Part shown: positions 77 through 50,043 of the stretch, piece by piece
Numbering within the stretch: position 1 is the stretch's first letter
Layout of the letters: each line of letters starts with the position of its first letter
Origin: an uncultured Candidatus Saccharibacteria bacterium
GTDB lineage: Bacteria; Patescibacteriota; Saccharimonadia; Saccharimonadales; JALRHH01
Direction of reading: 5' to 3'
Assembly: GCA_964559915.1 (NCBI GenBank)
Contig: CAZLJP010000004.1
Span: 16,336-80,335 of the forward strand
Length of the DNA: 64,000 nt
The notes under the pieces: generated by a model
What the model was told of the DNA's origin: nothing
What the model saw: only the letters and a program-made list of their open reading frames with translations
The model's database searches: none
Translations under genes and position numbers: made by a program

Positions 77-856
77 CTAAAGTTGCTGGTACAAAGCGTA
101 CCACTGCTCAAGAGATAACTCTTGGGGGCGTGTGGTGGGGTTAATATTGGCGGCGGCTAGAAGCTTGGTCACAGCCGGCTTATCTATCTGAAGCCCCCCA
201 CTCAAACTATTCAGCAGCGTCTTGCGACGATTACTAAAACCCGCCTTCACCAGTCTGAAGAATTGTTTTGTATCAATATCAGGAAACAGTGGGGTGTCAC
301 GGCGTTTTAGGATAAGTACACGAGAATCTACCTTTGGTGGAGGCGTAAACAGATGCGCTGGCACAATTAACCCTGGCAAAGCCTGCCAATAATACTGTGC
401 TGTCACTGATAATAGCGACATATCGCCCGGCTCGGCGCTTACACGGTCGGCAACCTCTTTCTGAACCAGCAAGACCGCACAAGCCGGCTGATTTGTACTC
501 TCTGACAGTACGCGAATCAGCTTACTGGTGAGATAGTACGGGATATTAGCAACGACTTTGTAGTTGGCCGGCAGGCTCGTTAAATCAAAACTAAGGATAT
601 CTTGGTGGACGACTTCTAAGTTGCTCTCTGGCACGCGGCGCGCCAGCTCAGCTGCGAGCTTGTCATCAAACTCTACAGCCACTACTCGCCCCGCCCGCTC
701 ACAGAGCAGCTCAGTAAGTGTGCCCACGCCAGGGCCAATTTCAAGCACCGTATCATTGTCAGTCAGCTCGGCAGCGTCACAAATGGCAGACAGCGTCACA
801 AAATCGGTCAGCCAATGCTGACCCAAAGACTTCTTAGCAAACGGTAAATCTTTCAT
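77..856 (-). CDS. rsmA: 16S rRNA (adenine1518/1519-N6)-dimethyltransferase RsmA/KsgA
   Basis: KKSLGQHWLTD and the SAM-binding motif VLEIGPGVGTLT are typical of KsgA. The ATG at 856 gives a normal N-terminus. The longer track ORF (to 949) starts with TTG. Confidence 0.9.
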   Translation of the reverse strand: MKDLPFAKKSLGQHWLTDFVTLSAICDAAELTDNDTVLEIGPGVGTLTELLCERAGRVVAVEFDDKLAAELARRVPESNLEVVHQDILSFDLTSLPANYKVVANIPYYLTSKLIRVLSESTNQPACAVLLVQKEVADRVSAEPGDMSLLSVTAQYYWQALPGLIVPAHLFTPPPKVDSRVLILKRRDTPLFPDIDTKQFFRLVKAGFSNRRKTLLNSLSGGLQIDKPAVTKLLAAANINPTTRPQELSLEQWYALYQQL

Positions 857-2752: not shown

Positions 2753-4896
2753 AGCTTTTTAAGAGGCGCGAAGGCCGTGTTGAGTTTTTTCGTCCCCTTG
2801 CCCTTAAAATAAATAACTGCTGTTTCGCCCTGCATTTCCATCACCGTACCCCGGCCAAATACATCGTGCTGCACTGCATCACCTTCGCTAAGCTCCAGTA
2901 CATAGCTCACATCCTGGTTAATGTCATAACTGGCTGATTGGTCGTACGTATTCTGCCAGCTTGAACCACCGAGACTCACACTATCGACATGGAACGAACT
3001 ATCAATTTCACTTAGAAAGCGTGATGGTGGATTGTGCTGCATGCCGCCATATAACAACCGACCCGTAGCATAGCTCAGATATAACTCACTCTTGGCGCGC
3101 GTCATGCCTACGTAGCATAGGCGACGTTCTTCTTCCATTTCTGCTTGGTCATATAGTGCCCGCGAATGAGGAAAAATTGTTTCTTCCATGCCCGTCATAA
3201 ACACCACCGGGAATTCCAGGCCCTTGGCAGCATGCAATGTCATCAGTGTCACAACGTTAACACCGTTTTCCATACTGTCGACATCGCTTACCAGCGAAAC
3301 TTCCTCGAGGAATCCATCCAAACCGAGGTCCTGGTAGCTCTTGGCTACACTAATAAGTTCACGGACGTTTTCTTGGCGAGATTCGCCCTGGATAGTTTTA
3401 TCATCAAGATAGCTAAAGTAATTGATTCGGCGCAGCAAGCTTTCAATCAACGCTGGCAGAGGTGCCTCATCCAATGTTTGGCGTGCGCTACGCAGTATGT
3501 CGCCCAGTTCATGTAGGCCAAGCTTGGCCTTGCCGGTCAGAGCAGCACATTGTTCTACGCCTTCGAGTGCTGCCTGCAAACCCAGACCATTTGCAGCTTG
3601 CCAGTCGTAGAAATTTTGCAAGGATTTAGTACCAATACCACGGGTCGGTACATTTACCACGCGTTCAAAGCTGACACGGTCCTCTGGCTGATACATCAGC
3701 CGCAGATATGCCAGTACGTCTTTGATTTCTTTGCGGTCGTAGAACCGCTGGCCACCTACGATACGGTAAGGCACACCATATCGTACAAATGCTTCTTCTA
3801 CAGAACGACTCTGGGCATTGGTGCGATACAACACCGCAAAATCCTGATAATTCCGAAAGCGCGCATCGACTGCATTTTTAACGCGGCGCACAATGCCCTC
3901 GGCTTCGGCCCGTTCGTTGGCAACTTGAATCACATCAACCGGTTTGCCACCGGTACTGTTGGTCCACAATTTTTTGTCAGAACGTTGGTCATTTTTGCTA
4001 ATTACTGCGTGTGCCGCATCAAGAATTTCTTTAGTGCTCCGGTAGTTCTGCTCTAGCTTCACAATGGTGGCTTTGGGATTATCTTTTTCGAAGTTCAAGA
4101 TATTACGGAAATCTGCCCCGCGCCAGCTATAGATACTTTGCCAGTCATCACCCACCACAGCGATGTTATTATTCTGATTGGTTAATAGTTTGACTAAGCG
4201 ATATTGCGCTGCGTTGGTGTCCTGGTACTCGTCAATCATGACGTAGTGGAACTGCCGGCGCCAGTTGTCGCGAATATCAGTATGGGTTTCTAGCAAATGA
4301 ACGGTGCGAGCAATCAAATCGTCAAAATCAAGCGCACCCGCGTTCTTTAGAATGGTTTGGTACAACGGATATACCTGAGCCGCGGCTTTCTGGACAGGGC
4401 TACTAGAGCCATATTCACCTGGTGTGACAAGCTCGTTCTTAGCGTTGCTAATGTAGGATGACAGAGTGCGGGCAGGAAAACTTTTTTCATCCAACATCAA
4501 TTGTTTACTAGCTTGTTTGATAGCAGTCTGACGGTCTGATTCGTCAAAGATTACAAAGTTTGAAGGGATGCCGATTGCTTGGCCATTCTGGCGCAGTAAC
4601 CGCACGCAAATACTATGGAAGGTACCCATGTATGGCATGAAGCTACGGTTATCAGGGTTTTGGCCCAGCAATGTAGCCACGCGTTCGCGCATTTCGCGGG
4701 CTGCCTTATTAGTAAACGTCACTGCCAAAATTTGTGGTGGCGCAGCTTTGCCGGTGGCAATGAGGTACGCAATACGGTGGGTTAGGGTTTTGGTTTTACC
4801 CGAACCAGCGCCGGCCAGAATTAAAAGAGGGCCTTCGGTAGCAGCCACAGCGCGTGCTTGCTCGTCGTTTAGCCCAGCGGTAAAGTCATCTATCAC
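2749..4896 (-). CDS. uvrD: ATP-dependent DNA helicase, UvrD/PcrA family
   Basis: Walker A AGAGSGKTKTL, DEYQDT, and QNYRST and VTLMTLHAAKGLEF motifs over 715 aa. Confidence 0.92.
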   Translation of the reverse strand: MIDDFTAGLNDEQARAVAATEGPLLILAGAGSGKTKTLTHRIAYLIATGKAAPPQILAVTFTNKAAREMRERVATLLGQNPDNRSFMPYMGTFHSICVRLLRQNGQAIGIPSNFVIFDESDRQTAIKQASKQLMLDEKSFPARTLSSYISNAKNELVTPGEYGSSSPVQKAAAQVYPLYQTILKNAGALDFDDLIARTVHLLETHTDIRDNWRRQFHYVMIDEYQDTNAAQYRLVKLLTNQNNNIAVVGDDWQSIYSWRGADFRNILNFEKDNPKATIVKLEQNYRSTKEILDAAHAVISKNDQRSDKKLWTNSTGGKPVDVIQVANERAEAEGIVRRVKNAVDARFRNYQDFAVLYRTNAQSRSVEEAFVRYGVPYRIVGGQRFYDRKEIKDVLAYLRLMYQPEDRVSFERVVNVPTRGIGTKSLQNFYDWQAANGLGLQAALEGVEQCAALTGKAKLGLHELGDILRSARQTLDEAPLPALIESLLRRINYFSYLDDKTIQGESRQENVRELISVAKSYQDLGLDGFLEEVSLVSDVDSMENGVNVVTLMTLHAAKGLEFPVVFMTGMEETIFPHSRALYDQAEMEEERRLCYVGMTRAKSELYLSYATGRLLYGGMQHNPPSRFLSEIDSSFHVDSVSLGGSSWQNTYDQSASYDINQDVSYVLELSEGDAVQHDVFGRGTVMEMQGETAVIYFKGKGTKKLNTAFAPLKKL

Positions 4897-5015: not shown

Positions 5016-5576
5016 CTAAGGCGCTGATTTTAGCAGGTCAAAAGGTAGTTGTATGTCTGTATTAATTACATCAGCATCAATGGCCAGTACCACGCCAACC
5101 AGCAAAATTAACAGTGCTACGAATAGACCTAGCTCAATACGGTGAGTCCGTTTTTTTGCAGCTACACCAATTGGTACAAAATATTTTTTAGACTGAACGA
5201 GTTGTTCAACAAGCTCAAGCCGTTTATGTAGGACATCAGCATCCTTTTCGGCCTGCTTTTTGTCACCCGCACGCTCAACTACCGCATCAACTACTGCCTG
5301 GTCACTGATTGCGGCATCTTCAACATCTTTCTTGGCCGGCTCAGGCTGGGTGCTCGCTACTGGAGCTTGCTCACTCAGCGGTTTAACCACTTTACTAGTA
5401 GGCCGGGTAAGTTTCTCTGCACTTTGCTGTTCGGCTGGTTTTGCTTCATCAGCAGCCATCATTGGGTCTTTGAGGGGTATGCCGTGGCCGACGATAATGG
5501 GACGTGAAGTAGCGGCAGCTGGTGTCTTACCTGGCTTCTGGATATCGGTAATTGGTTTTGCTGGTTTTTCTGCCAT
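5016..5576 (-). CDS. hypothetical tail-anchored membrane protein (Ala/Pro/Lys-rich)
   Basis: Low-complexity N-terminal part and a single C-terminal TM (LGLFVALLILLVGVVLAI). No recognisable domain. Confidence 0.5.
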   Translation of the reverse strand: MAEKPAKPITDIQKPGKTPAAATSRPIIVGHGIPLKDPMMAADEAKPAEQQSAEKLTRPTSKVVKPLSEQAPVASTQPEPAKKDVEDAAISDQAVVDAVVERAGDKKQAEKDADVLHKRLELVEQLVQSKKYFVPIGVAAKKRTHRIELGLFVALLILLVGVVLAIDADVINTDIQLPFDLLKSAP

Positions 5577-9825: not shown

Positions 9826-9874
9826 GCCTAAATCATAGCACCTTATGTAGAAAATCGAACCCAGTTAACAGGTA

Positions 9875-34679: not shown

Positions 34680-34828
34680 TGGTACACCCGGCAAGAGACG
34701 CACATCTGTAGCCATGCTCGATGCAAGCATCTGCGCGTGGCCTGGATGACCGAACTTTAGCTCGAATCTTGTCTCGATAAATCGAGCAGAAATTAAAACC
34801 ACCCATAAAGGGTGGCTTGAATTTCTCC
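34680..34828 (-). repeat. tRNA-Arg-associated 3'-end-duplication module (terminator, conserved structured core 34699-34770, 17-nt copy of tRNA 3' end 34680-34696)
   Basis: TGGTACACCCGGCAAGA occurs at 34680-34696 and inside the tRNA at 34829-34845. The core is shared with modules at 46964-47025 and 49884-49957. The terminator AAGCCACCC-TTTAT-GGGTGGTTTTAATTT lies at 34790-34818. Confidence 0.75.
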
Positions 34829-38968: not shown

Positions 38969-40489
38969 ATGCCTACAACAAATGAGAAAATCGGACACCT
39001 TATTTACCAAGTAAGACAAGAGCGCAGCATGACGCAAGCGGAGTTTGCTCGCAAACTGGGGACCAGCCAGTCAGCCATTAATCGTATCGAGCATGGCAAA
39101 CAAAACCTGAGCTTGGAGACGCTTGGCCGTATCAGTGATGTGCTTAAAAAGCCGCTTATTAGCTTGGGTAGCAGCGCTGTGAACCTCCGTATCGAAGGTG
39201 GTCACGAGCTCAGCGGCAGCATCCAGACCAATGTTTCTAAGAATGCTGCTGTGTGTTTGTTATTTGCAGCCTTGCTTAATAAAGGTACGACTCGCCTAAA
39301 GCATATGCCCCGTATCGAAGAGGTCTATCGTATTATCGAAGTTCTGACCAGTATTGGCGTTAGCGTCAAGTGGCTGCCAGGCAACGACCTAGAAATCAAA
39401 CCTCCTGCAATAATTGACATGTCCAAAATGGATAAGACCGCTGCTCGCAAAACTCGTAGTGTCATCATGATGCTTGGCCCGCTTATGCACATCTTTAAAG
39501 AGTTTAAGATTCCGTATGCCGGTGGCTGTAAATTAGGCACACGCACCGTGCAGCCGCATCTGTTTGCACTGGAAGAGTTTGGTGTTGATATTGTGGCAAA
39601 AACCGGCCACTACCATGTTATTGTCCAGAAAAAATTACCCGAAGAAGTGGTGCTATACGAATCTGGCGATACCACCACAGAAAACGTCATCATGGCTGCC
39701 GCAAAGTTTGACGGCGAAGTCACAATCAAAATGGCCAGCGCCAATTACATGGTTCAGGACCTCTGTTTCTTCCTCAAGAAACTGGGAGTCAAGATTGAAG
39801 GCATCGGCACCAGCACTTTGCGTGTCCGCGGTGTCAAAGAAATCAAGAAGAACGTTACCTACTATCCCGGCGAAGACCCCATTGAGTCTATGACATTTGT
39901 GGCCGCAGCTGTTGCTACGAATTCCAAGCTCACCATCACCCGCTCTCCGATTGAGTTTTTGGAGCTGGAGCTACTAAAGCTCAAGAAAATGGGGCTCCGT
40001 ATTGATGTGTCAGAAAAATATAAAGCCAATAACGGACAGACCGATTTAGCAGACATCACCGTTCACAAGCACGATGGTGGTTTGCGGGCACTCGAAGAAA
40101 AGATTTATGCCCGTCCGTTCCCTGGTCTAAATATTGATAACTTGCCGTACTTTGTACCGGTAGCTGCCGTTGCCAAGGGGCGCACACTCATTCATGACTG
40201 GGTCTACGAAGAGCGAGCCCTCTATTACACAGAGATGCGCAAGCTCGGTGTTAACGTAACGCTCGCCGACCCACACCGTGCTTATATAGACGGACCAACC
40301 AAATGGAGCGCGGCTGATATTGTCTGTCCGCCCGCTTTGCGACCCGCCGTACTGCTACTCATTGGTATGCTTGCTGCCGACGGCGTATCAATCTTGCGTA
40401 ACATTTACTCTATCAATCGTGGGTATGAGGATTTGGCCGAGCGCTTAAATAGCATCGGTGCTCAAATCAGTCTTGTTCACGAGCTATAG
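38969..40489 (+). CDS. murA: XRE-type HTH domain fused to UDP-N-acetylglucosamine 1-carboxyvinyltransferase
   Basis: Residues 1-65 form a Cro/C1 HTH (MTQAEFARKLGTSQSAINRIEHGKQNLSLETL). The rest is full-length MurA (VSKNAAV, active-site loop YAGGCKLGTRTVQPH, RGYEDL) in one uninterrupted frame. Confidence 0.85.
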   Translation: MPTTNEKIGHLIYQVRQERSMTQAEFARKLGTSQSAINRIEHGKQNLSLETLGRISDVLKKPLISLGSSAVNLRIEGGHELSGSIQTNVSKNAAVCLLFAALLNKGTTRLKHMPRIEEVYRIIEVLTSIGVSVKWLPGNDLEIKPPAIIDMSKMDKTAARKTRSVIMMLGPLMHIFKEFKIPYAGGCKLGTRTVQPHLFALEEFGVDIVAKTGHYHVIVQKKLPEEVVLYESGDTTTENVIMAAAKFDGEVTIKMASANYMVQDLCFFLKKLGVKIEGIGTSTLRVRGVKEIKKNVTYYPGEDPIESMTFVAAAVATNSKLTITRSPIEFLELELLKLKKMGLRIDVSEKYKANNGQTDLADITVHKHDGGLRALEEKIYARPFPGLNIDNLPYFVPVAAVAKGRTLIHDWVYEERALYYTEMRKLGVNVTLADPHRAYIDGPTKWSAADIVCPPALRPAVLLLIGMLAADGVSILRNIYSINRGYEDLAERLNSIGAQISLVHEL

Positions 40490-40490
40490 A

Positions 40491-40604
40491 CTAACCCAAT
40501 AGCTCTTCTAGGCGCAGCTGATAACCCGTTCTGAGATAGATAATGTAGCCAACGGCTACTGCCAATAGCAGTATTAAAATAGCTGTCCGGTGCCACTCTT
40601 TCAT
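40491..40604 (-). CDS. 37-aa single-TM small protein, translationally coupled to sortase
   Basis: Hand translation gives MKEWHRTAILILLLAVAVGYIIYLRTGYQLRLEELLG. Its ATG overlaps the sortase TGA (CTATGAAA). Too short for the ORF track. Confidence 0.45.
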   Translation of the reverse strand: MKEWHRTAILILLLAVAVGYIIYLRTGYQLRLEELLG

Positions 40605-41188
40605 AGTTTTGGCTCCATTAATTCGGCAGTTATGACTAGACGATCCTTGGCCGACCACAGTGGCGTACAGGTATAGATTGTAAGTATTGAGTTGGTGGTT
40701 GGGGCTATCAAACTTGAGTCCGTTGGTGATACTACATGAACTCCAGTTACTACATAATCGTATCGCTTACCTTCCCAAAACAGCGTAATAGCATCGCCCT
40801 TCGACACTTTATCCAAATAGTAAAAAACTGCTTTGCCACTGTAGGTAAAACGATGCCCAGCGATAATAGTGTTACCACCCCTATCTGGCGTGCTATTCTT
40901 TGGCAGGTGCCATACGCCTTTGTTGAGTGTTTGTACATCAGGCCCATCATAGACCGCTTGCTTCATTTCAAGTTTTGGAATCAAGAGAGTGTTCTGTGTG
41001 GGTGTTGGCTCACTAGTAGCCACGACAGTCTCTGGTCTGCGTGACACTACAGGTGCTTCGTGTCGCACCCACCACGTCAGGCTAGGTAAAAATGGCCAAG
41101 TAAAAATATACAGCGCTAGAAAAATAACAAGTAAACCTAGGCCAGTATTAAAGTGACGCAACGTTATGTGACGCTTCATAATATACAT
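40601..41188 (-). CDS. sortase (membrane-anchored cysteine transpeptidase)
   Basis: N-terminal TM, catalytic His (IIAGHRF), TLxTC-type motif LTIYTCTP, and Arg (KDRLVITA). Confidence 0.88.
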   Translation of the reverse strand: MYIMKRHITLRHFNTGLGLLVIFLALYIFTWPFLPSLTWWVRHEAPVVSRRPETVVATSEPTPTQNTLLIPKLEMKQAVYDGPDVQTLNKGVWHLPKNSTPDRGGNTIIAGHRFTYSGKAVFYYLDKVSKGDAITLFWEGKRYDYVVTGVHVVSPTDSSLIAPTTNSILTIYTCTPLWSAKDRLVITAELMEPKL

Positions 41189-41390
41189 TGTACAGAAATC
41201 TATAGCATACTACTTTGCAAAACATCCTTGCATACTGTGAAGTAAAGTTGGATAATGCGTAATAGAACAAATATCTACAGACAAGCGACTAGGGGGCGGA
41301 GTGAGCAAAACCTGGCGATTGCTTTGGATAAACTCTCTTACTAAAACCTAATTACTTGCCTAATATACGATTACAGTGAAGGAGGTCGTT

Positions 41391-44300
41391 ATGAGAAAGT
41401 TTAGTTTTCGTACCATCAAACAAAGACTTGGTATGAGTCTTATTGCCGTACTATTTAGTGCGACGCAAATTTTGTTTCCAGTATTAGCCAGTAGCACTGT
41501 CTATGCAGCCGGGGCCACTATAAACTCGAGTAATCATCAGGGTAAAAATACTGATGGTACCTGGACGAGTGGCAATACCACTCTCTATAAGGAAGGTGAT
41601 TACGCTCACTTCCGCTTTACTCTCACGGCCAATCAAGCCGCTCAGGGCTCCATGCTTGTAGTATTCTCCAACGCAGCAAACGGCTGTGCTCAATTCTTCA
41701 CAAACTACTTTAGCATTGACTCCGTAACACCGGCTGGTACTGCAACTGTCACTCCAGCGGGTGCCCCAGTTAGCGTAGCGGGTGGTGGGGGTTCTTCTGA
41801 TTGGCAGCAGCAGCTTAACCTTAACTTCAGCGCCGGCGGTAATGTAACAGTCGAGTATGTTCTACAATTCTCGTTCACTGCTGGCGACTGTAATGGCTCA
41901 AGCACCCACAGTGCTCTTGCTGCAGCCCAGAACGCTGGTGACTACAAGAATACCGGAGCACAAACAATTCCTCTGCCCGGGTCTGGTATTCTGTACGCTC
42001 CAAGCATAACAATCAACAAGACTGTTAGCGGCGGAAGTGCAGTTCCTAGTGACTTTAGCTTTACCGTTTCACCTGCTATTGGCGGGCAAACCGTCTTCCA
42101 TATCCCCAGTGGGCAAACATCCGTAACCATCCCGAACATTAATCCAGATGGCGTCTTTACTATTACCGAAAGTGGTCCAGCTGGCTACACAATGATAAGT
42201 GGTAGCGGTACAAACTGTGTTGTTACCTCGCTCGCAGATGGCAAGATGACAGCCACCGTGACCGCTGGTCGACCTGCAGTAGATGCCATTTGTAACTTTG
42301 GCAATCAGCAACAAACGGGTAGCATCAAAGTCATTAAAGATGTTGTGAATGACAATGGCGGCAACAAAACGTACGCTGACTTCACATTCACCCTTAATGG
42401 CACCACTTATAACTTCGACGCTACCACGTCACCTGATGGAGCAAAAACCGTTACTCTACCAGTCGGTGGACCCTACAGTGTAGTCGAGCCAGAGGCCGAC
42501 ACTATGGGATATGCAACAGGCTACAACAACTGCGCGAACCTGGTAGTAGTGGCCGGACAAACCCAAACGTGTACCATTACCAATAATGACGTTGCACCAT
42601 CATTAACTTTGAATAAGATTGTTAACAATGCTTTTGGTGGCGACAATCCTGAGAGTGACTGGACGCTTACAGCTAACGGTGGAAATGCCGGTGTACTATC
42701 TGGCCCAGGCGCCAATACAAACACAGATGTTGTCAGTGGCGCTGGCTTCAAAGCTGGCACCTATGCCCTCAGTGAAAATGGCCCATCAGGCTACAGCGCC
42801 AGCAGCTGGACATGTACTGGTACCGGTACACAGAATGGCAGCAATATTACGCTTGCTGCTGGTCAATCTGCTGTATGTACCATCACGAACACTGCACAGC
42901 AGCCAACACTCACTATTGTCAAAAATGTCACCAATGCCTTCGGTGGCACACTAGTTGCAAGTGATTTTGGACTAAAGGTCAATAATACTAGTCTCAGCTT
43001 TATAGCTGGTGCTCCGGGTACAACTACCGCCTACACCGCCACACCTAGTGTCAATGCCAACACCTCCTATACACTCAGTGAAATTGATGTTGCCGGATAT
43101 TCAGAGGGCAACTGGAACTGTACAGGCGGCACCTCTGGAGTGTTTAGCGGCACCAGTGTCACCCTTGACGAGGGAGAAAACGTCACCTGTACTATTACCA
43201 ACAGTGACATAGCGCCAATTATCAATATCATAAAGCTAGCGCTTAACCCTTATGGTACCGCACTCTTACCTGATGCCTTTAGCCTAACGCTCGACGGCCA
43301 ACCAGTATCTAGTGGCGTAAACAATCCTGTTACTGCTGGGTTACACATTGTTGGAGAAACGCAGCAACCTGGCTACCAGTTTACTAGCTTTGCTGGCCAG
43401 AACTGTACAGTCGATCAGCAAGGTACCTGGACGGCCTTAGGTGTCATTGGGCAGACAACCACTTGTACCATTACCAACACCGCAATCCAACCAAAGTTGA
43501 TTATCAAAAAGCACGTTGTTAACGACAACGGCGGTGGCAAGTCAGCTGGCGACTTCAATATGACCGTTAGTGGGAACGCTGTTAGTGACACGAACTTCCC
43601 AGGCGAAGAAGCTGGTACGACGGTCTATCTCAGCGAAGGCACCTACAGTGTTGACGAACTTACCGACGGTGCATACGCAAAGACGCTCAGTGAAGACTGT
43701 AGTGGCACAATCAAGATTGGCGAGACCAAGACCTGTACAATCACGAATGATGACAAGCCAGGTACACTAATCGTTAACAAGGCTGTCAAGGGCGGCGACA
43801 GCGAAGCCGAAGACTTTAGTTTCAAGATTGATGGTAGTGACACAGATTATAGCTTTGTAAACGGCCAGACAACTACTGAGGGTAGCGCACCCGTCGAGCT
43901 TAACGCTGGTACATATTCTGTCACAGAGAACGACGCCTACGGCTACGACAAAGACGACAGTGACTGTAAGAACGTTCAGGTCAAGAATGGCGATGAAGCC
44001 AGCTGTACCATCACCAATACTGCACAGCGTAAGATTACTATCTGTCACGCCACTGCCGCAGTAAAGAACCCGTATGTAACCCTATCTGTACCCATCTCAG
44101 CCGTTGACGGCACTGCTGGCAACCAAGCAGGTAAAGGTGATCATTACGGCGAACACCAGGGTCCAATCTTCGACCCCGCAGTCAACCACAACGGTGACAA
44201 CTGGGGAGATATCATCCCACCGGTGCCGCCATACCACAATGGCCTTAACTGGGACGAGGACGGCCAAGCAGCCTACGAAAATGACTGTGTTCCTCCTGCT

Positions 44301-45293
44301 AAAGTAATTGTTACCAAGTACAACGACCTCAACCGTAACGACGTACAAGATCAGGATGAACCCACCCTACCCGACTGGGAGTTCAACCTAACCGACGGTC
44401 AGTGTGACCAAGAGTTCAATATCGAGGCGTTCCTATCAAAAGCCCTCAATGAGGCAACTTGTTACGACAAAACTCAGACCACCGGCCAAGACGGCACAAC
44501 TACTTTCAAAGGTGTCGTACTAGACAACACCTACCAGTTGTCAGAAAATATCCCCGCAGATAGTAACTGGCATCTCGGTAATATCAGCTGTGATGGCGAC
44601 CAAGCAGGTCTTGATGGTAACATCTTCTACCTCGACGACATCCAGCCTGGTGTTACTATCGACTGTACTGTTGGCAACTACCGTGACGCCGTACTCAATA
44701 TTGCTAAGTCAAATAATCGTCCTAACCCAACTACCGTAGGCGACACTGTCACCTACACTCTTACCGTAACTGTCCCAGAAGACAGTGGCATGGTGTTCGA
44801 TACTGAAGTAACCGATCTGCCACCAGAAGGTTTCGAGTATGTAACCGGCAGCTGGACAGCAGATTCAAGTGTACGTGGTGACATCAAGGGCGAACTGACT
44901 CCTGAGCCAACCTACGGTTCTCCGGGTATCTGGCTACTCCGAAACCTTGTCCCAGGAGAGATTGTCACTCTCACCTACAAGGCATTAATCAAATCAAGCG
45001 TTAGTGATGGCAAATACCCAGATATCGCATTTGCGCGCGGTTGTAGCACAAACCTCGGCTGTGTACCTCAGGGTAGTGGCAATGTCATCTTTGCCAATAT
45101 CAGCACTGGTAGCAATACGCCATTTGTCGGCACTACCGTTGCCATAACCTCACCTGCGGTCATACCTGCCAATATTATCCACTACGTTAATACTGGCGCA
45201 TCAAATGTATGGCTCAACACGATTGCAGCAATTACTCTTGCGGGAGCAGCCCTGATGACACTTGTTCGCCGTGAGCAGAAAGGAACAAAGTAA
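41391..45293 (+). CDS. giant modular surface adhesin-like protein with C-terminal YVNTGA sorting signal
   Basis: AAGGAGG RBS before the ATG at 41391. Signal peptide (VLASSTVYA|AG). Seven roughly 90-104-aa modules ending in CTITN. SdrD-B/DUF11-like distal domains. C-terminus is YVNTGASNVWLNTIAAITLAGAALMTLVRREQKGTK. Confidence 0.85.
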   Translation: MRKFSFRTIKQRLGMSLIAVLFSATQILFPVLASSTVYAAGATINSSNHQGKNTDGTWTSGNTTLYKEGDYAHFRFTLTANQAAQGSMLVVFSNAANGCAQFFTNYFSIDSVTPAGTATVTPAGAPVSVAGGGGSSDWQQQLNLNFSAGGNVTVEYVLQFSFTAGDCNGSSTHSALAAAQNAGDYKNTGAQTIPLPGSGILYAPSITINKTVSGGSAVPSDFSFTVSPAIGGQTVFHIPSGQTSVTIPNINPDGVFTITESGPAGYTMISGSGTNCVVTSLADGKMTATVTAGRPAVDAICNFGNQQQTGSIKVIKDVVNDNGGNKTYADFTFTLNGTTYNFDATTSPDGAKTVTLPVGGPYSVVEPEADTMGYATGYNNCANLVVVAGQTQTCTITNNDVAPSLTLNKIVNNAFGGDNPESDWTLTANGGNAGVLSGPGANTNTDVVSGAGFKAGTYALSENGPSGYSASSWTCTGTGTQNGSNITLAAGQSAVCTITNTAQQPTLTIVKNVTNAFGGTLVASDFGLKVNNTSLSFIAGAPGTTTAYTATPSVNANTSYTLSEIDVAGYSEGNWNCTGGTSGVFSGTSVTLDEGENVTCTITNSDIAPIINIIKLALNPYGTALLPDAFSLTLDGQPVSSGVNNPVTAGLHIVGETQQPGYQFTSFAGQNCTVDQQGTWTALGVIGQTTTCTITNTAIQPKLIIKKHVVNDNGGGKSAGDFNMTVSGNAVSDTNFPGEEAGTTVYLSEGTYSVDELTDGAYAKTLSEDCSGTIKIGETKTCTITNDDKPGTLIVNKAVKGGDSEAEDFSFKIDGSDTDYSFVNGQTTTEGSAPVELNAGTYSVTENDAYGYDKDDSDCKNVQVKNGDEASCTITNTAQRKITICHATAAVKNPYVTLSVPISAVDGTAGNQAGKGDHYGEHQGPIFDPAVNHNGDNWGDIIPPVPPYHNGLNWDEDGQAAYENDCVPPAKVIVTKYNDLNRNDVQDQDEPTLPDWEFNLTDGQCDQEFNIEAFLSKALNEATCYDKTQTTGQDGTTTFKGVVLDNTYQLSENIPADSNWHLGNISCDGDQAGLDGNIFYLDDIQPGVTIDCTVGNYRDAVLNIAKSNNRPNPTTVGDTVTYTLTVTVPEDSGMVFDTEVTDLPPEGFEYVTGSWTADSSVRGDIKGELTPEPTYGSPGIWLLRNLVPGEIVTLTYKALIKSSVSDGKYPDIAFARGCSTNLGCVPQGSGNVIFANISTGSNTPFVGTTVAITSPAVIPANIIHYVNTGASNVWLNTIAAITLAGAALMTLVRREQKGTK
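41990..44020 (+). repeat. tandem intragenic domain repeats (7 modules, period about 270-312 nt)
   Basis: The Cys-x-I/F-T/G-N module ends recur at about 42291, 42571, 42876, 43188, 43464, 43734 and 44004. Each is followed by a [IL]x[IV]xK...NxxGG start. Confidence 0.7.
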
Positions 45294-45964
45294 TGAAAAA
45301 GCTTTTAATTGCACTGACACTAACTGTTGTCCTTAGCCTTGGCTTGTCAGCACAGACATTGGCAGCCAGTCGCTATTGGGACGTACAAATCATGACTCCT
45401 GCTGCATCTAGTACTAACCATACGCTAAATGTCGCGTATAACGTCCTCTCAACGATTGAGGACGACATCTACGACGTCAGCTTATACCAAAATGAGATAC
45501 TCATTGGCTCACAGCACGTCGACCATCCACCTAAGGGCGGTGATTCAGGAGCATTCAACATTACGATGCCTGCTAATGGTACATACAAGTACCAGATTTC
45601 TGCCAACAACACGAGTGCTGGTGAAATAAAAATGACTGACGCTAAAACAGTTACTATTGTTAATGGCCCAAGTCCAACTGTTACGACTGTTACTACTGCT
45701 AGTGCAACTGGCAGCACTACCGGCACCGGCGCTAACGCGAGTCAGACGAATGGCATAGCAACTGCCGCCAATGGCACAAACAACGGGCAAGTTACCGATA
45801 ATGCAGCCAGCACCGAGAAAAAGGACGGTCAATCACTTGGCGCAAGCACCACCAAAGCAAGCGCATCACACAACAACAAAAAGTGGTACGCACTTGGTGC
45901 TGGGACTATCGTTCTCCTTGTGGCCGCCTACTACTGGGTTCGTCGTCGCAGCGAACAAGAATAA
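45293..45964 (+). CDS. secreted, C-terminally membrane-anchored Thr/Ala-rich protein
   Basis: TAATG junction with the adhesin gene. Signal peptide (LSAQTLA|AS). C-terminal TM plus RRRSEQE. No sorting motif. Confidence 0.6.
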   Translation: MKKLLIALTLTVVLSLGLSAQTLAASRYWDVQIMTPAASSTNHTLNVAYNVLSTIEDDIYDVSLYQNEILIGSQHVDHPPKGGDSGAFNITMPANGTYKYQISANNTSAGEIKMTDAKTVTIVNGPSPTVTTVTTASATGSTTGTGANASQTNGIATAANGTNNGQVTDNAASTEKKDGQSLGASTTKASASHNNKKWYALGAGTIVLLVAAYYWVRRRSEQE

Positions 45965-45982
45965 AAAAACTTTACTTTAAAT

Positions 45983-46012
45983 AAAAAGCCGGTCATCAGA
46001 CCGGCTTTTTAT
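45983..46012. terminator. bidirectional intrinsic terminator
   Basis: AAAAAGCCGGTC-ATCA-GACCGGCTTTTTATTT. Confidence 0.75.
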
Positions 46013-46192
46013 TTGGGGCGAACGATGGGGATTGGCCACATTCTGCAGCCCCAAAACTTCGCTCATGGCAACATAGTTGCCAGAGGAAGATTTTCTTGCA
46101 AACAGCCACAGGCTGTTTTCACCCACGACCTTAGGGTGGGTTCGATACACATGTGCCAAATAATAAGTCCCACAAAAGTGGGACTTATTATT
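46009..46192 (-). repeat. tRNA-His-associated 3'-end-duplication module
   Basis: 26 nt (TTATTTGGGGCGAACGATGGGGATTG) at 46009-46034 equals 46188-46213. 11 nt (ACCCACGACCT) at 46121-46131 equals tRNA 46215-46225. An 86-nt insert at 46035-46120 sits at the T-loop position of the copy. The hairpin AATAATAAGTCCCAC-TTTT-GTGGGACTTATTATT directly follows the tRNA. Confidence 0.7.
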
Positions 46193-46270
46193 TGGGGCGA
46201 ACGATGGGGATTGAACCCACGACCTCCGGAACCACAACCCGGCGCTCTAACCAACTGAGCTACATTCGCC
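46193..46270 (-). tRNA. tRNA-His (anticodon GTG) with encoded G-1 and CCA
   Basis: G-1 plus GCGAATG acceptor, anticodon arm CCGGG-TTGTGGT-TCCGG, T-arm GTGGG-TTCAATC-CCCAT, C73, CCA. Confidence 0.88.
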
Positions 46271-46325
46271 ATAGCTTTAAATAACAGAGGTAATTTTACT
46301 GCATTCGAGCAAAAATAACAATAAC

Positions 46326-46853
46326 TTATATCTGTTGGTAGTATTCTGATGATAGTAGTGCGTCTACTGCATCTGGTATATCTGATTTAGCCGGAACGCC
46401 AGACAGAATTTGAGCTTTTACTTCTTGTGGGTTAATCCAGCTAGCAGAAACAAAATCTTCTGGGTTAAACTGTGGTGTTTCATTGCTTCGATATGCGTAT
46501 AACATAGTGTAGTAACGAACATCGTCACGCCTGAACTTCTTGATAGAAACTAAGTCGGCAGGGCTAATTGTAATATTAATTTCTTCTTCGGCTTCTCGTA
46601 CAGCTGCGTCTAGATAATCTTCACCTGAATCAACGTGACCACCTACACTGAAGTCTAAACCGTTAGGCGCGATTGTCTTATCTGCCGTACGTTTAGGTAT
46701 CCAGAGTTGGCCTTGGTCGTTGATGATAAGTATGTTGGAGGCACGGATATATCCCAGTTTATCTGCTATTAATTTGCCGTAGTCTGCACGCAAAATAGTA
46801 CCGATTACGGCATCATTCTCGTCTGTCAAATCTAATAATTCTTCTTGGTGCAT
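46326..46853 (-). CDS. NUDIX hydrolase
   Basis: Nudix box GGHVDSGEDYLDAAVREAEEEINI. The start codon lies 9 nt after the tRNA-Arg(TCT) 3' end. Confidence 0.8.
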   Translation of the reverse strand: MHQEELLDLTDENDAVIGTILRADYGKLIADKLGYIRASNILIINDQGQLWIPKRTADKTIAPNGLDFSVGGHVDSGEDYLDAAVREAEEEINITISPADLVSIKKFRRDDVRYYTMLYAYRSNETPQFNPEDFVSASWINPQEVKAQILSGVPAKSDIPDAVDALLSSEYYQQI

Positions 46854-46862
46854 ACGTTTTCT

Positions 46863-46939
46863 TGGTGCCCCCGGAATGATTCGAACATTCGACCTTAGGC
46901 TTAGAAGTCCTCTGCTCTGTCCAGCTGAGCTACGGGGGC
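46863..46939 (-). tRNA. tRNA-Arg (anticodon TCT), CCA encoded, atypical anticodon stem
   Basis: Perfect acceptor GCCCCCG/CGGGGGC, D-arm, and T-arm GAATG-TTCGAAT-CATTC. The anticodon arm GAGGA-CTTCTAA-GCCTA has only 3 Watson-Crick pairs. Confidence 0.72.
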
Positions 46940-47106
46940 ATTGGTGCGGGTGCGGAGAATATAGATATAATCTTGCGGCGTGCTCGGTGCAAGCACCTGT
47001 GCGCGTCCTCGATTATCGAACTCTCGCTCGCTTTGGCTCGCTGACCGAGTTCAATCTCAGTCAATCAAACCAATTTCTAACTCTTTGCAAGCAAAGAATC
47101 AGAAAT
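46940..47106 (-). repeat. tRNA-Gly-associated 3'-end-duplication module (core 46964-47025)
   Basis: 21 nt (ATTGGTGCGGGTGCGGAGAAT) at 46940-46960 equals 47105-47125. The core is related to the Arg and Pro modules. The copy abuts the 5' end of tRNA-Arg(TCT). Confidence 0.75.
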
Positions 47107-47181
47107 TGGTGCGGGTGCGGAGAATCGAACTCCGATCTCGAGTTTGGAAAACTCATATACTAGCCGTTGTACTACACCCGC
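47107..47181 (-). tRNA. tRNA-Gly (anticodon TCC), CCA encoded
   Basis: GCGGGTG/CACCCGC acceptor, anticodon arm TGAGT-TTTCCAA-ACTCG, T-arm CGGAG-TTCGATT-CTCCG, then ACCA. Confidence 0.9.
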
Positions 47182-47252
47182 TGAACCAGCATATTATACC
47201 AGTTTACATCTGTTATAATAAGCCTAACTTAATCATCTAATGAGGGACCCCC

Positions 47253-49094
47253 ATGTTGCGACGCGTTAAACGGTTTTTAAAAGATTATCGCCAACTGAGT
47301 TTTGCAATTGTAATTGCCATAACAGGAGCAGCACTTGATTTGGCGAGCAGAGATTTAGCCGCACACTGGATTCTCGCCAGTGGCGCACTTTTAGTGACAA
47401 TTCCATTACTTATCGACATGATAAAAACTTTGCGTTCAGGTCAATTTGGTATTGATTTACTTGCACTTGTAGCAATAGTTACCTCAGTTATTTTGCAGCA
47501 ATACTGGGCGGCCCTGGTTATTGTATTGATGCTAACCGGCGGTGAATCTTTAGAAAAATATGCTGAAGGACGGGCCAAAAACGAGCTGAATAGCCTTCTC
47601 AACCATCGACCAAAAATTGCCCACCTTATCAAGAAACAAGCACGTGTGGATATCAAAGTTTCAGATATAGTAATCGGTGATGAATTAGAAATTTTGGCTG
47701 GTGAAGTCATACCCGTAGACGCTGTAATTCTTGAGGGTGAGTCAAGTGTCGACGAATCAAGTATTACCGGCGAGAGCGTTCCTATTATAAAAAGGGCTGG
47801 CGAAAACGTCCTAAGCGGATCAATTAATATTGAAGGTGTGCTTATTATCCGTGCCCATCATGCAGCAGCTGACAGCCAGTACGAGCAAATCATCAAATTG
47901 GTACGTGGAGCTTTGGCCAGTAAATCACCTTTTGTGCGACTGGCTGATACCTACAGCATACCGTTCACGGCTGTATCATTCTTTATAGCTGGGGCGACAT
48001 GGATTGTAACAGGTGAAGCAATACGATTTCTCGAGGTACTAGTAGTGGCTACGCCTTGTCCACTCTTACTCGGCGCACCCATTGCACTGATTTCTGGCAT
48101 GAGCCGCGCCGCAAAGCATGGCATTATTATCAAATCGGGTGTTCGTTTAGAGCAATTGGCTGACATTGAAACTGTGGCGTTTGATAAAACAGGCACACTC
48201 ACCCAAGGCCGGCCAGTGGTGAACACCGTTACCAGTTACGGGAAATTCAGTAAAGAAGATGTCGTTCAGGCGGCGGCTGCCCTGGAACAAAGCTCCTCTC
48301 ATATCCTGGCACAAGCCATTGTTGGCTATGCTGGTGACCATAAGATATCGTACCAACGCGCAAAACAGGTCAAAGAAACTGCCGGCCATGGGCTCAGCGG
48401 CAGGCTGATGGGCAAACACATCCTGGTAGGCCACCGCAGCCTGATAATCGAGTCGGGTATAGATATGCCCAAAACTCTGCAGGGTAAGGCACCTAAACAG
48501 ACTGTGACATACGTAGCAATTGGGGGTGTATTAGCTGGCACGATTACGTTCAAGGATAGTATCCGACCCGAAGCAGCTCTCACCCTCAAAAACCTAAGAA
48601 GCCTCGGCATCAAAAATTTTGCCTTGGTGACTGGTGATAATGAAGCATCAGCTATTTCTATTGCACAGGAGTTAGACATTCGTGATGTGTATCCCGACTG
48701 CTTACCTGCGGACAAAATTCATGCCGTAGAGGCTATGAGTGCACCAATTGCATTCGTTGGTGATGGCGTCAACGATGCACCGGTACTGACTGCTGCTGAT
48801 GTTGGTATCGCGTTAGGCGCACGCGGTTCGACCGCCGCCAGCGAAACAGCTGATGTCGTAATTATGCACGACGACATCTCGCGCGTGGCCACAAGCATAG
48901 CCATAGCCAAGCGTACTTTATTCATTGCAAAACAAAGCGTGTTGATAGGTATCCTTATTAGCCTGGGACTGATGGTAATATTTGCTACGGGCAAATTCAC
49001 CGCCGTTCAAGGCGCCCTGGTACAAGAAGTAGTGGATGTGATTGTTATTATCAACGCTCTGCGTGCGCACGGCGGCAAGCTTACAGTCGGTTAA
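47253..49094 (+). CDS. P1B-type (heavy-metal) P-type ATPase without N-terminal metal-binding domain
   Basis: DKTGTLT, TGDN and GDGVNDAP motifs. The TM6 motif is ATPCPLL. About 6-8 TM segments. Confidence 0.85.
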   Translation: MLRRVKRFLKDYRQLSFAIVIAITGAALDLASRDLAAHWILASGALLVTIPLLIDMIKTLRSGQFGIDLLALVAIVTSVILQQYWAALVIVLMLTGGESLEKYAEGRAKNELNSLLNHRPKIAHLIKKQARVDIKVSDIVIGDELEILAGEVIPVDAVILEGESSVDESSITGESVPIIKRAGENVLSGSINIEGVLIIRAHHAAADSQYEQIIKLVRGALASKSPFVRLADTYSIPFTAVSFFIAGATWIVTGEAIRFLEVLVVATPCPLLLGAPIALISGMSRAAKHGIIIKSGVRLEQLADIETVAFDKTGTLTQGRPVVNTVTSYGKFSKEDVVQAAAALEQSSSHILAQAIVGYAGDHKISYQRAKQVKETAGHGLSGRLMGKHILVGHRSLIIESGIDMPKTLQGKAPKQTVTYVAIGGVLAGTITFKDSIRPEAALTLKNLRSLGIKNFALVTGDNEASAISIAQELDIRDVYPDCLPADKIHAVEAMSAPIAFVGDGVNDAPVLTAADVGIALGARGSTAASETADVVIMHDDISRVATSIAIAKRTLFIAKQSVLIGILISLGLMVIFATGKFTAVQGALVQEVVDVIVIINALRAHGGKLTVG

Positions 49095-49866: not shown

Positions 49867-50043
49867 AGAGCACGAAAGGACAATGCACATCTACGGCCAT
49901 GCTCGAAGTAAACTTCTGTGCCTGGCCTTGATGACCGAACCTTCGACCTACAATCTTTTTCACTAGCGAAAAATCTTGGGTCGAAGGTTCGAGGACTGAG
50001 CACTGACCAAACAAAAAGCCCATCTTTCGATGGACTTTTTGTT
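49867..50043 (-). repeat. tRNA-Pro-associated module (terminator 50013-50040, inverted T-arm copies, core 49884-49957, diverged 3' copy)
   Basis: CGAACCTTCGACCT at 49936-49949 equals tRNA 50063-50076. GAAAGGAC at 49874-49881 equals 50054-50061. An opposite-orientation copy GGTCGAAGGTTCGAG lies at 49979-49993. The core is near-identical to the Arg module. Confidence 0.7.

Follow-up and report, generated by a model that had tools for sequence, protein, structure and literature searches.

Elements that use tRNA genes as att sites are said, in the work of Reiter in 1989 and Williams in 2002, to duplicate the 3' end of the gene, and one class of such sites reportedly has its sublocation in the T loop. 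The module described here, which lies directly behind a tRNA-His gene, resembles these att sites in its direct duplication of the tRNA 3' end, in the intact gene upstream, in a breakpoint within the T loop, and in a displaced copy that keeps the ancestral downstream terminator. It differs from them in that only 153 nt lie between the repeats, without an integrase or cargo, and in that an antisense copy is present. Unlike tRNA-gene att sites, moreover, modules of this kind have a conserved hairpin in the displaced T loop and form a family common to many tRNAs.

CTX-phage attP(+) and integron attC sites offer a second comparison. As in those sites, two inverted target-like copies in the modules can fold to a hairpin resembling the duplex target, with the central part unpaired or bulged, and a few of the loci collected here show cassette-like variable content and tandem copies. 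The modules differ, however, in lacking Xer and IntI sites as well as phage genes; their target is a tRNA gene, and the bulge is a conserved hairpin of 56 to 86 nt. With tRNA-like RNAs (the tRNA-like domain of tmRNA, YrlA/Y-RNA, viral TLS, minihelices, and external guide sequences) the modules share a T-arm stem, a TTCGA loop, the acceptor 3' strand, and an NCCA end, and they are also alike in that the module would come from tRNA transcripts. In contrast to these RNAs, most modules have no acceptor 5' strand, a large insertion is present at position 59/60, and there is no Rfam match; the sequence of each module is matched to the neighboring tRNA and is not generic.

Some archaeal non-canonical tRNA introns lie at position 59/60. 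The modules resemble tRNA introns in that tRNA-derived sequence carries an insertion, and canonical modules share the archaeal 59/60 position. The interrupted copy, however, does not have the 5' two-thirds of the tRNA and cannot yield a tRNA, whereas the adjoining intact tRNA is uninterrupted. Group I introns have been described in Patescibacteria at tRNA position 35/36 (PMC13011429), and a group I intron was rejected as an account of the modules on the grounds that this position differs, that 56 to 86 nt is too small, and that no group I match was found in Rfam. The last comparison is with DUP-TRP/INV-DUP rearrangements and quasipalindrome correction, in which the direct-inverted-direct order and junctions at palindromes (here the trailer hairpin and the T arm) are the same as in the modules. 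Template-switch triplications are sporadic and unconserved, whereas the modules embed a common structured core and persist across genera.

The tRNA-His locus lies in a window (the whole stretch of DNA that was analyzed, 64,000 nucleotides in length) that carries genes for RNase Y, SHMT, and an HTH-fused MurA, a NUDIX gene, and a sortase/SpaA pilin operon, as in a Saccharibacteria-type chromosome, and whose closest database relatives are Saccharimonadales MAGs. All seven tRNA genes of the window are on the minus strand. A promoter scan placed a promoter-like site for tRNA-His at 46321-46293. Read along the tRNA strand, the locus has the following features.

46193 to 46269, minus strand: intact tRNA-His(GTG) gene with encoded G-1 and CCA (ARAGORN; Rfam tRNA, 64.7 bits).
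46158 to 46192, minus strand: proximal trailer palindrome or terminator-like hairpin, AATAATAAGUCCCAC-UUUU-GUGGGACUUAUUAUU (repeat family D1; from sequence).
46136 to 46152, minus strand: antisense degenerate copy of the tRNA-His T arm, ATGTGTATCGAACCCAC (14 of 17 positions against the expected ATGGGGATTGAACCCAC by local alignment).
46121 to 46135, minus strand: sense variable loop, T-stem 5' strand, and T54, CCTAAGGTCGTGGGT (46121-46131 is the exact 11-mer).
46100 to 46119, minus strand: insert hairpin 1, AAACAGCC-UGU-GGCUGUUU (from the fold and the alignment with the relative L068).
46057 to 46089, minus strand: insert hairpin 2, CUUCCUC-UGGCAAC-UAU-GUUGCCA-U-GAG-C-GAAG (from the fold).
46035 to 46056, minus strand: insert 3' segment, UUUUGGGGCUGCAGAAUGUGGC (from sequence).
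46009 to 46034, minus strand: tail of the His module, identical to 46188-46213.
45979 to 46013, minus strand: distal terminator-like hairpin, AAAUAAAAAGCCGGUC-UGAU-GACCGGCUUUUUAUUU (from sequence).

A sequence-only reading of this stretch had described two repeats that link the tRNA-His gene to a second, interrupted copy of its 3' end, and both proved to be exact, on the minus strand, and beyond chance. The 26-mer CAATCCCCATCGTTCGCCCCAAATAA occurs in exactly two copies, at 46009-46034 and 46188-46213 (0 expected in 100 shuffles), and comprises the 3' part of the T loop, the 3' strands of the T stem and the acceptor stem, C73, CCA, and 5 nt of trailer. The 11-mer AGGTCGTGGGT also occurs in exactly two copies, at 46121-46131 and 46215-46225 (shuffle expectation, 0.04), and comprises the variable loop, the T-stem 5' strand, and T54. 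The 26-mer repeats are 179 nt apart, with 153 nt between them. Since an independent Logan assembly from another sequencing run (L112, SRR8931236) is 100% identical over window positions 45687-47746, the repeats and the insert are not an assembly artifact.

Neither Rfam RF00005 nor ARAGORN called a cloverleaf tRNA in 46009-46192, the only call being the gene at 46193-46269, and the only pieces of tRNA in the His module are variable-loop, T-stem, and acceptor 3' parts. The second copy is, as had been read, a tRNA-His 3' fragment with an interruption in its T loop. That the break falls after T54 is literally so in the window, but this boundary looks like a secondary small deletion because the His module of L068 still has part of the T-loop 5' side (GTCAT) and canonical inserts, described below, follow TTCGAT.

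The terminator-like hairpins reported on both sides of the module were recovered as A/T-flanked G+C hairpins at 46158-46192 and 45979-46013. By eye, their stems and U tracts are GUCCCAC/GUGGGAC with CUUAUUAUUU and GCCGGUC/GACCGGC with UUUUUAUUU. A consensus terminator scan reported neither, and we suspect that they escaped it through the A/T arms that extend the stems. The arms of the proximal palindrome pair CCA with UGG; this palindrome resembles that of the His site in L078 and is not present at the empty His sites of L058, L063, and L067. The distal hairpin would also terminate, from the opposite direction, the pilin gene ending at 45964, and it resembles the terminator found directly after tRNA-His at the empty site of L058.

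Two components had been absent from the earlier description, the trailer palindrome and the antisense copy of the T arm, and because of them the unit is a sense-antisense-sense arrangement and not a simple direct duplication. The antisense alignment scores 22, compared to 12 to 14 in control tRNAs, which is modest alone. The 3' part of the antisense arm pairs with the sense T-stem piece (the 11-mer) and this hairpin is present in minimum free energy (MFE) folds, and the TGTGT deviation of the arm recurs in L078.

The 86 nt of the insert (46035-46120) fold on the minus strand into the two hairpins that had been named, with an MFE of -32.5 kcal/mol and z = -3.1, and the folding of the insert exceeds that of shuffled sequence (z = -3.1 and -4.5). 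Hairpin 1 is common only to the His modules of the window and L068, with a compensatory change from C-G to U-A in the latter. The apical stem-loop of hairpin 2 is CUUCCUCUGGCAAC-UAU-GUUGCCAUGAGCGAAG, and the hairpin was compared with the cores of L068 (CUU-C-UCGC-GCAGC..GCUG-AA-GCGA-AAG) and L078; it occupies the place of hairpin P3 of the canonical core and is thus its positional counterpart, to which we infer that it is homologous. Within the insert 3' segment, CAGAAUGUGGC resembles the YAGAUGUGC that ends type-2 cores, a likeness that alone is not significant (p = 0.19).

The layout of the His module recurs behind other tRNA genes. On the tRNA strand, the order is tRNA, palindromic trailer hairpin, antisense copy of the tRNA 3' part, a short loop or hairpin, and then the interrupted sense copy, which itself runs from the variable loop, T-stem 5' strand, and T-loop 5' part through the core to the T-stem and acceptor 3' strands, often with CCA. 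The core hairpin is inserted at T-loop position 59/60, and a small second hairpin is present in some modules. We found the sense-antisense-sense order in at least four modules of the window (His, Arg(tcg), Pro, and Gly), so that the shared architecture proposed for these loci held up, and also outside the window at L017, L038, L060, L068, L070, L072, L073, L075, L078, and L080. By this layout the His unit belongs to the module family, with 14 of 17 antisense positions matching and both the sense 11-mer and the 26-mer exact.

Several details tie the arms of a module to the tRNA beside it. In the Gly and Pro modules, the antisense arm starts with the bases complementary to CCA. The antisense arm of L075 complements the acceptor 3' strand (GCCCCGG) exactly and does not copy the 5' strand (GCCTCGG), and with the acceptor 3' strand it makes a perfect 28-bp palindrome. 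Tails match the local tRNA, the acceptor part being CGTTCGCC in both the tRNA-His and the module of the window and CATTCGCC in the corresponding pair of L068, and the Thr modules of L038 and L060 each carry their own genome's T stem in both the sense and the antisense arms. The module helices contain G.U wobbles on the tRNA strand.

A helix between the antisense arm and the tail that closes the module as a three-way junction is found in L060, L070, and the His module of L068, and few modules have a strong one. As a general feature of the family, this helix was rejected since it does not hold across the modules in general, and in the His module of the window it is weakened or eroded. Truncated tails are frequent, and decay is plain in some modules, the Pro module of L068 among them. 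We found no MITE- or IS-type terminal inverted repeats that would be the element's own, and the length of the duplicated target segment differs among modules (8 to 26 nt), unlike that of a fixed-length target-site duplication.

The Arg, Pro, and Gly modules of the window have a common 56-nt sequence at the interruption. A degenerate pattern of this core, searched in 185,579 species genomes, matched 56 loci; 5 of them were in Saccharibacteria/Saccharimonadales MAGs and were counted as real, and the other 51, in other, mostly G+C-rich, phyla, were treated as chance on taxonomy alone. The pattern gave six further modules in JGI metagenomes, and additional loci were fetched via neighboring genes. 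Altogether, the 56-nt hairpin interruption was observed in about 15 loci from other Saccharimonadia. The module follows at least nine tRNA species, namely, Gly(tcc), Arg(tcg), Arg(cct), Pro, Lys, Thr(cgt), Leu(caa), Asp, and His, and the canonical insertion point is after TTCGAT, which corresponds to T-loop position 59/60.

In structure, the core is a single nested hairpin; its RCA/GA internal loop is invariant, and its apical stem varies. Across 14 sequences, 89.7% of the cells are paired, and six pairs changed on both sides, giving 29 such cells. None of 500 shuffles reached so high a value, and sliding the partners left 21 to 37% paired. A covariance model of the core (R1) gives 61 to 82 bits for canonical copies and 18 to 33 bits for divergent or truncated ones. 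The Gly, Pro, and Arg modules of the window score 73 to 81 bits, while at the His locus R1 found no match with filters off and E ≤ 10, bearing out the earlier statement that the His insert differs from the core of these three.

The orthologous Gly cores of the window and L068 are identical at 49 of 56 positions and show compensatory G-C/A-U changes, while their flanks have diverged and the ATPases of the two are only 59% identical. Such a pattern is the mark that selection for a structure leaves on sequence passed on vertically.

We found no Rfam match for the core or the module at gathering thresholds or at E ≤ 10 when the module region and related loci were searched; only tRNAs and weak chance matches were returned. 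In particular, no self-cleaving ribozyme (HDV-like/theta) or group I intron was matched at either threshold. HDV-like ribozymes are hard to detect by sequence, and the exclusion of this class is therefore soft. Two structural readings of the core were set aside. An HDV-like pseudoknot was dropped because the nested hairpin explains all conserved pairings and covaries, and a K-turn in the RCA/GA loop is at odds with G25-C36, which on inspection is an invariant Watson-Crick pair. Core patterns gave either no match or coding sequence only in the viral contigs of IMG/VR, and no prior description of the module family was found in the searchable literature.

Loci syntenic with the His site were fetched via the neighboring NUDIX and pilin genes. 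The orthologous position beside the pilin operon is occupied by canonical modules in some relatives, and the presence of modules at orthologous sites is patchy, with three states of the His site.

Empty, with a terminator directly after tRNA-His: L058, L063-65, and L067.
Filled, with a canonical core: L078 (61.5 bits), L080/L081 (61 bits), and L066 (32.5 bits, a copy cut by the contig end).
Filled, with a non-canonical two-hairpin insert: L068 and the window.

L068 is syntenic for the His-Arg(tct)-Gly cluster, and it has the modules of Gly and Pro as well. The His modules of L068 and the window are homologous, with the antisense arm, a CCTAAG loop, hairpin 1, and the AGCGAA(A)G motif in common. 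R1 found no canonical core in the His module of L068 either, and its insert is bounded by core-type motifs: GGTCATGAA, right after the T-stem piece, is the 5' boundary motif of type-2 cores (p = 0.015), and GTAGATATGCA, right before the tail, matches their 3' boundary motif at 10 of 11 positions. Hairpin 2 of L068 is also core-like, with GCGCAG followed by an apical hairpin. In alignments, the similarity of the window insert to type-2 cores is not significant (p = 0.1 to 0.4). Exact-pattern scans of viral and metagenome contigs for a disrupted tRNA-His 3' end gave no matches.

The sequence-only reading had concluded that the cargo is variable within a shared architecture. Taken to mean that unrelated cargoes share one frame, this is not supported, as relatives carry the canonical core at the His site and the L068 insert, a homologue of that of the window, has core-type boundary motifs. 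Given its position, the intermediates L068 and L078, and the boundary motifs, the insert of the window is most likely a remodeled or decayed core with an extra hairpin and not an independent cargo. The core of this insert would now be hairpin 2, with hairpin 1 added later and a few nucleotides deleted at the T-loop boundary.

Our tentative preference, which stops short of calling it probable, is that 46009-46192 is a diverged module copy of an apparently undescribed Saccharimonadia tRNA-trailer family and encodes a T-arm-derived structured RNA that is co-transcribed with the tRNA. Membership of the His unit in the family is well supported by architecture and position, and the window copy may be decaying or losing its function. 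The module would be transcribed together with its tRNA; in the Gly-to-Arg(tct) and Thr-to-Gly operons, the module lies between co-transcribed tRNAs. As the Gly module is located 2 nt upstream of tRNA-Arg(tct), with no promoter-like site found between them, it must be transcribed through on the tRNA strand. In relatives without the Gly module, the tRNA-Gly and tRNA-Arg(tct) genes abut.

The transcript would then fold on itself, the antisense arm pairing with the sense T-arm halves and the core projecting from the T-loop position, and normal tRNA-processing cuts would release an RNA of ∼140 nt with a tRNA-like 3' end. The core would be the functional and selected part, presumably a platform to which one shared partner, protein or RNA, binds. 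The arms, specific to each tRNA, could have arisen by local sense-antisense-sense duplication and could be kept matched to the neighboring tRNA by gene conversion or palindrome correction. In the His copy, the canonical core would have been remodeled into hairpin 2, hairpin 1 gained, and the closing helix weakened.

We favor this RNA reading because the tails track the tRNA, the Gly cores are conserved with compensatory changes, and the Gly module, by its position, must be transcribed through. The tRNA-His gene and its module are separated by a terminator-like hairpin that ends in a U-rich tail, and the scan found no promoter of the module's own, so the His module RNA would exist only by read-through. 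The patchy occupancy counts against the RNA reading, since an element that is mobile or neutral would fit it too.

It is possible, if rather doubtful, that the modules constitute a previously undescribed tRNA-gene-specific element in one of two forms, either (a) a DNA cassette with sense and antisense arms that would fold to imitate the T-arm/acceptor duplex of the tRNA gene and recombine with it, the core being a recombinase or accessory site, or (b) a set of tRNA-matched "T-arm expansion" RNAs. In form (b), there could be one RNA per tRNA, with the common hairpin leading to a shared partner, and each RNA could act or report on its cognate tRNA. Under either form, the His copy would be a variant showing how the core can be replaced.

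A purely DNA-level explanation, which we consider unlikely, is that of an integrative mini-element or cassette that recombines into the T-loop-to-acceptor segment and brings a replacement 3' end and a trailer hairpin, its arms folding in single-stranded DNA to mimic the duplex target by the logic of CTX-phage attP(+) and integron attC, with the core as an accessory site. Of the models considered, this is the only one that needs the target to be present in antisense as well as in sense, and it accommodates the direct repeats of the tRNA 3' end (8 to 26 nt) that flank the inserted segment, the orthologous His sites that have no module in L058, L063-65, and L067 but have one elsewhere, and the observation that in L066 and L078 the distal, and not the proximal, hairpin resembles the empty-site terminator. 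Tandem modules in L047 and variable content between the tRNA and the antisense arm are also in line with a cassette; in L072, a 123-aa ORF lies between tRNA-Arg(cct) and the antisense arm, and two Asp-type modules enclose a 1.7-kb island that contains a GIY-YIG nuclease and a fragment of IS1595.

Inverted arms and presence/absence polymorphism are both seen, but no recombinase was identified, and no recombinase, reverse transcriptase, or nuclease is consistently linked to the modules, the GIY-YIG nuclease being rejected as the linked enzyme because it was found in L072 only. Most such elements would measure just 150 to 180 bp, nothing was found in IMG/VR, and the empty sites could equally result from deletion between the direct repeats. 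The compensatory conservation of the core in vertically inherited orthologues points to selection in place and not to recent spread, and it is hard to see how, on moving to another tRNA, such an element would come by the matching 3' end.

Quite unlikely, in our judgment, is a neutral origin, in which template switching or fold-back at the trailer and T-arm palindromes left a direct-inverted-direct triplication, the His copy is decaying junk, and the hairpins it contains are incidental. Two template switches classically yield the sense-antisense-sense order, and the perfect palindrome extension in L075, the core-less mirror-image units on the 5' side in L063, L067, L068, and L078, and the bare partial copy at tRNA-Glu would all follow from such events, as would a His insert without the conserved core and an eroded closing helix. 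What a scar leaves unexplained is one covarying 56-nt sequence at the same T-loop position behind at least nine tRNAs. Nor does it predict that L068, a relative so diverged in its ATPase, still has the His module, with hairpin 1 altered in a compensatory manner, or that the insert folds better than its shuffled versions, as reported above.

Finally, that the repeats are attL and attR of a degraded prophage or island in tRNA-His, the island being the pilin/sortase region at 40.6 to 46.0 kb, is very improbable and largely refuted: direct repeats of a tRNA 3' end are a hallmark of such integrations and the sortase-pilin operon is not at this position in L058, but the repeats are 179 nt apart with no plausible gene in between (the listed ORFs overlap the tRNA and the hairpins), no third tRNA-His fragment is present in the window, the far side of the pilin operon included, the operon sits beside tRNA-His in many relatives whether the module is present or not, no integrase was seen near the module, and, with no ORF between the repeats and no viral-contig match, the att sites of a known element that the sequence-only reading had raised as an alternative were not recovered.

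Saccharibacteria genomes are tiny and have little spare DNA, yet ∼150 nt behind each of four of the seven tRNA genes of the window are given over to modules. Between genomes with proteins only 55 to 70% identical, the conservation of the core is as strong as that of a functional RNA. With its empty, canonical, and remodeled states, the His locus provides a natural series that can be used to date the gain, loss, and decay of modules. If the modules act as RNAs, they would represent a new tRNA-linked RNA class in a phylum of the uncultivated majority; if they are DNA elements, they would represent a new mode of tRNA-gene targeting with regeneration of the target.

Three canonical modules lie on the minus strand of the window, two of them with a core of the type-2 subtype (scores are in bits of R1, the covariance model of the core):

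46940-47106, minus strand: canonical module of tRNA-Gly(tcc); core 46966-47021, R1 81 bits
49870-50043, minus strand: canonical type-2 module of tRNA-Pro(tgg); core 49885-49940, 73 bits
34683-34828, minus strand: canonical type-2 module of tRNA-Arg(tcg); core 34700-34755, 73 bits

The tRNA-Gly(tcc) module carries a 21-nt tail repeat (46940-46960 is identical to 47105-47125), and since tRNA-Arg(tct) begins only 2 nt past its end, the module sits within a tRNA operon. The tRNA-Pro(tgg) module has an antisense/sense T-arm hairpin of 13 bp and a truncated tail; the tRNA-Arg(tcg) module retains a 17-nt tail running through CCA. The window also holds a shorter copy with neither core nor tail, which may be the remnant of a module; it spans the anticodon-stem 3' strand to the T-loop and lies ∼66 nt downstream of tRNA-Glu:

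∼9853-9872, minus strand: sense partial copy of tRNA-Glu, 20 nt, CTGTTAACTGGGTTCGATT

Related arrangements were found at compared loci outside the window:

L067 ∼5135-5260, L078 ∼2410-2535, L063 ∼3597-3700 and L068 ∼2950-3080, tRNA strand: mirror-image 5'-side units
L072 8991-10974, minus strand: module-bounded island
L075 ∼455-530, minus strand: perfect palindrome with arms of ∼28 bp

In the four mirror-image units, nucleotides 1 to 19 of tRNA-His or tRNA-Arg(tct) are copied with the D-loop region interrupted by an insertion, the 5' part of the tRNA then recurs in antisense, and the intact tRNA lies directly downstream; the R1 core is absent from all four. The L072 segment is a small island with modules at its bounds. 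In strand order, tRNA-Asp and a divergent module come first; next are a gene for a GIY-YIG nuclease (PF01541, E = 6e-16), an open reading frame of 275 aa and a fragment of an IS1595 transposase, and after these a second Asp-type module (R1 32.9 bits) and a YafQ-type toxin pair. The L075 palindrome joins the acceptor 3' strand of tRNA-Arg(cct), together with CCA and the trailer hairpin, to the exact antisense copy.

The following genes lie around tRNA-His in the window and in relatives:

38969-40489, plus strand: MurA (EPSP_synthase fold) with an N-terminal Cro/C1-type HTH domain
40601-45964: operon of a sortase, a 1305-aa SpaA-like pilin and a 223-aa protein
L057 650-1450 and L080 4131-4895: Exo_endo_phos-family gene next to tRNA-His

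The sortase/pilin operon is flanked by the HTH-MurA gene and the noncanonical module behind tRNA-His. The HTH-MurA fusion is kept in the compared locus L058, and because MurA there comes straight after tRNA-His, the position of the operon is lineage-specific. In L057 the Exo_endo_phos-family gene separates NUDIX from tRNA-His, and in L080 it separates tRNA-Arg(tct) from tRNA-His. Its presence in these two loci and its absence from the corresponding place by tRNA-His in the window show rapid turnover of the genes around the tRNA-His cluster.
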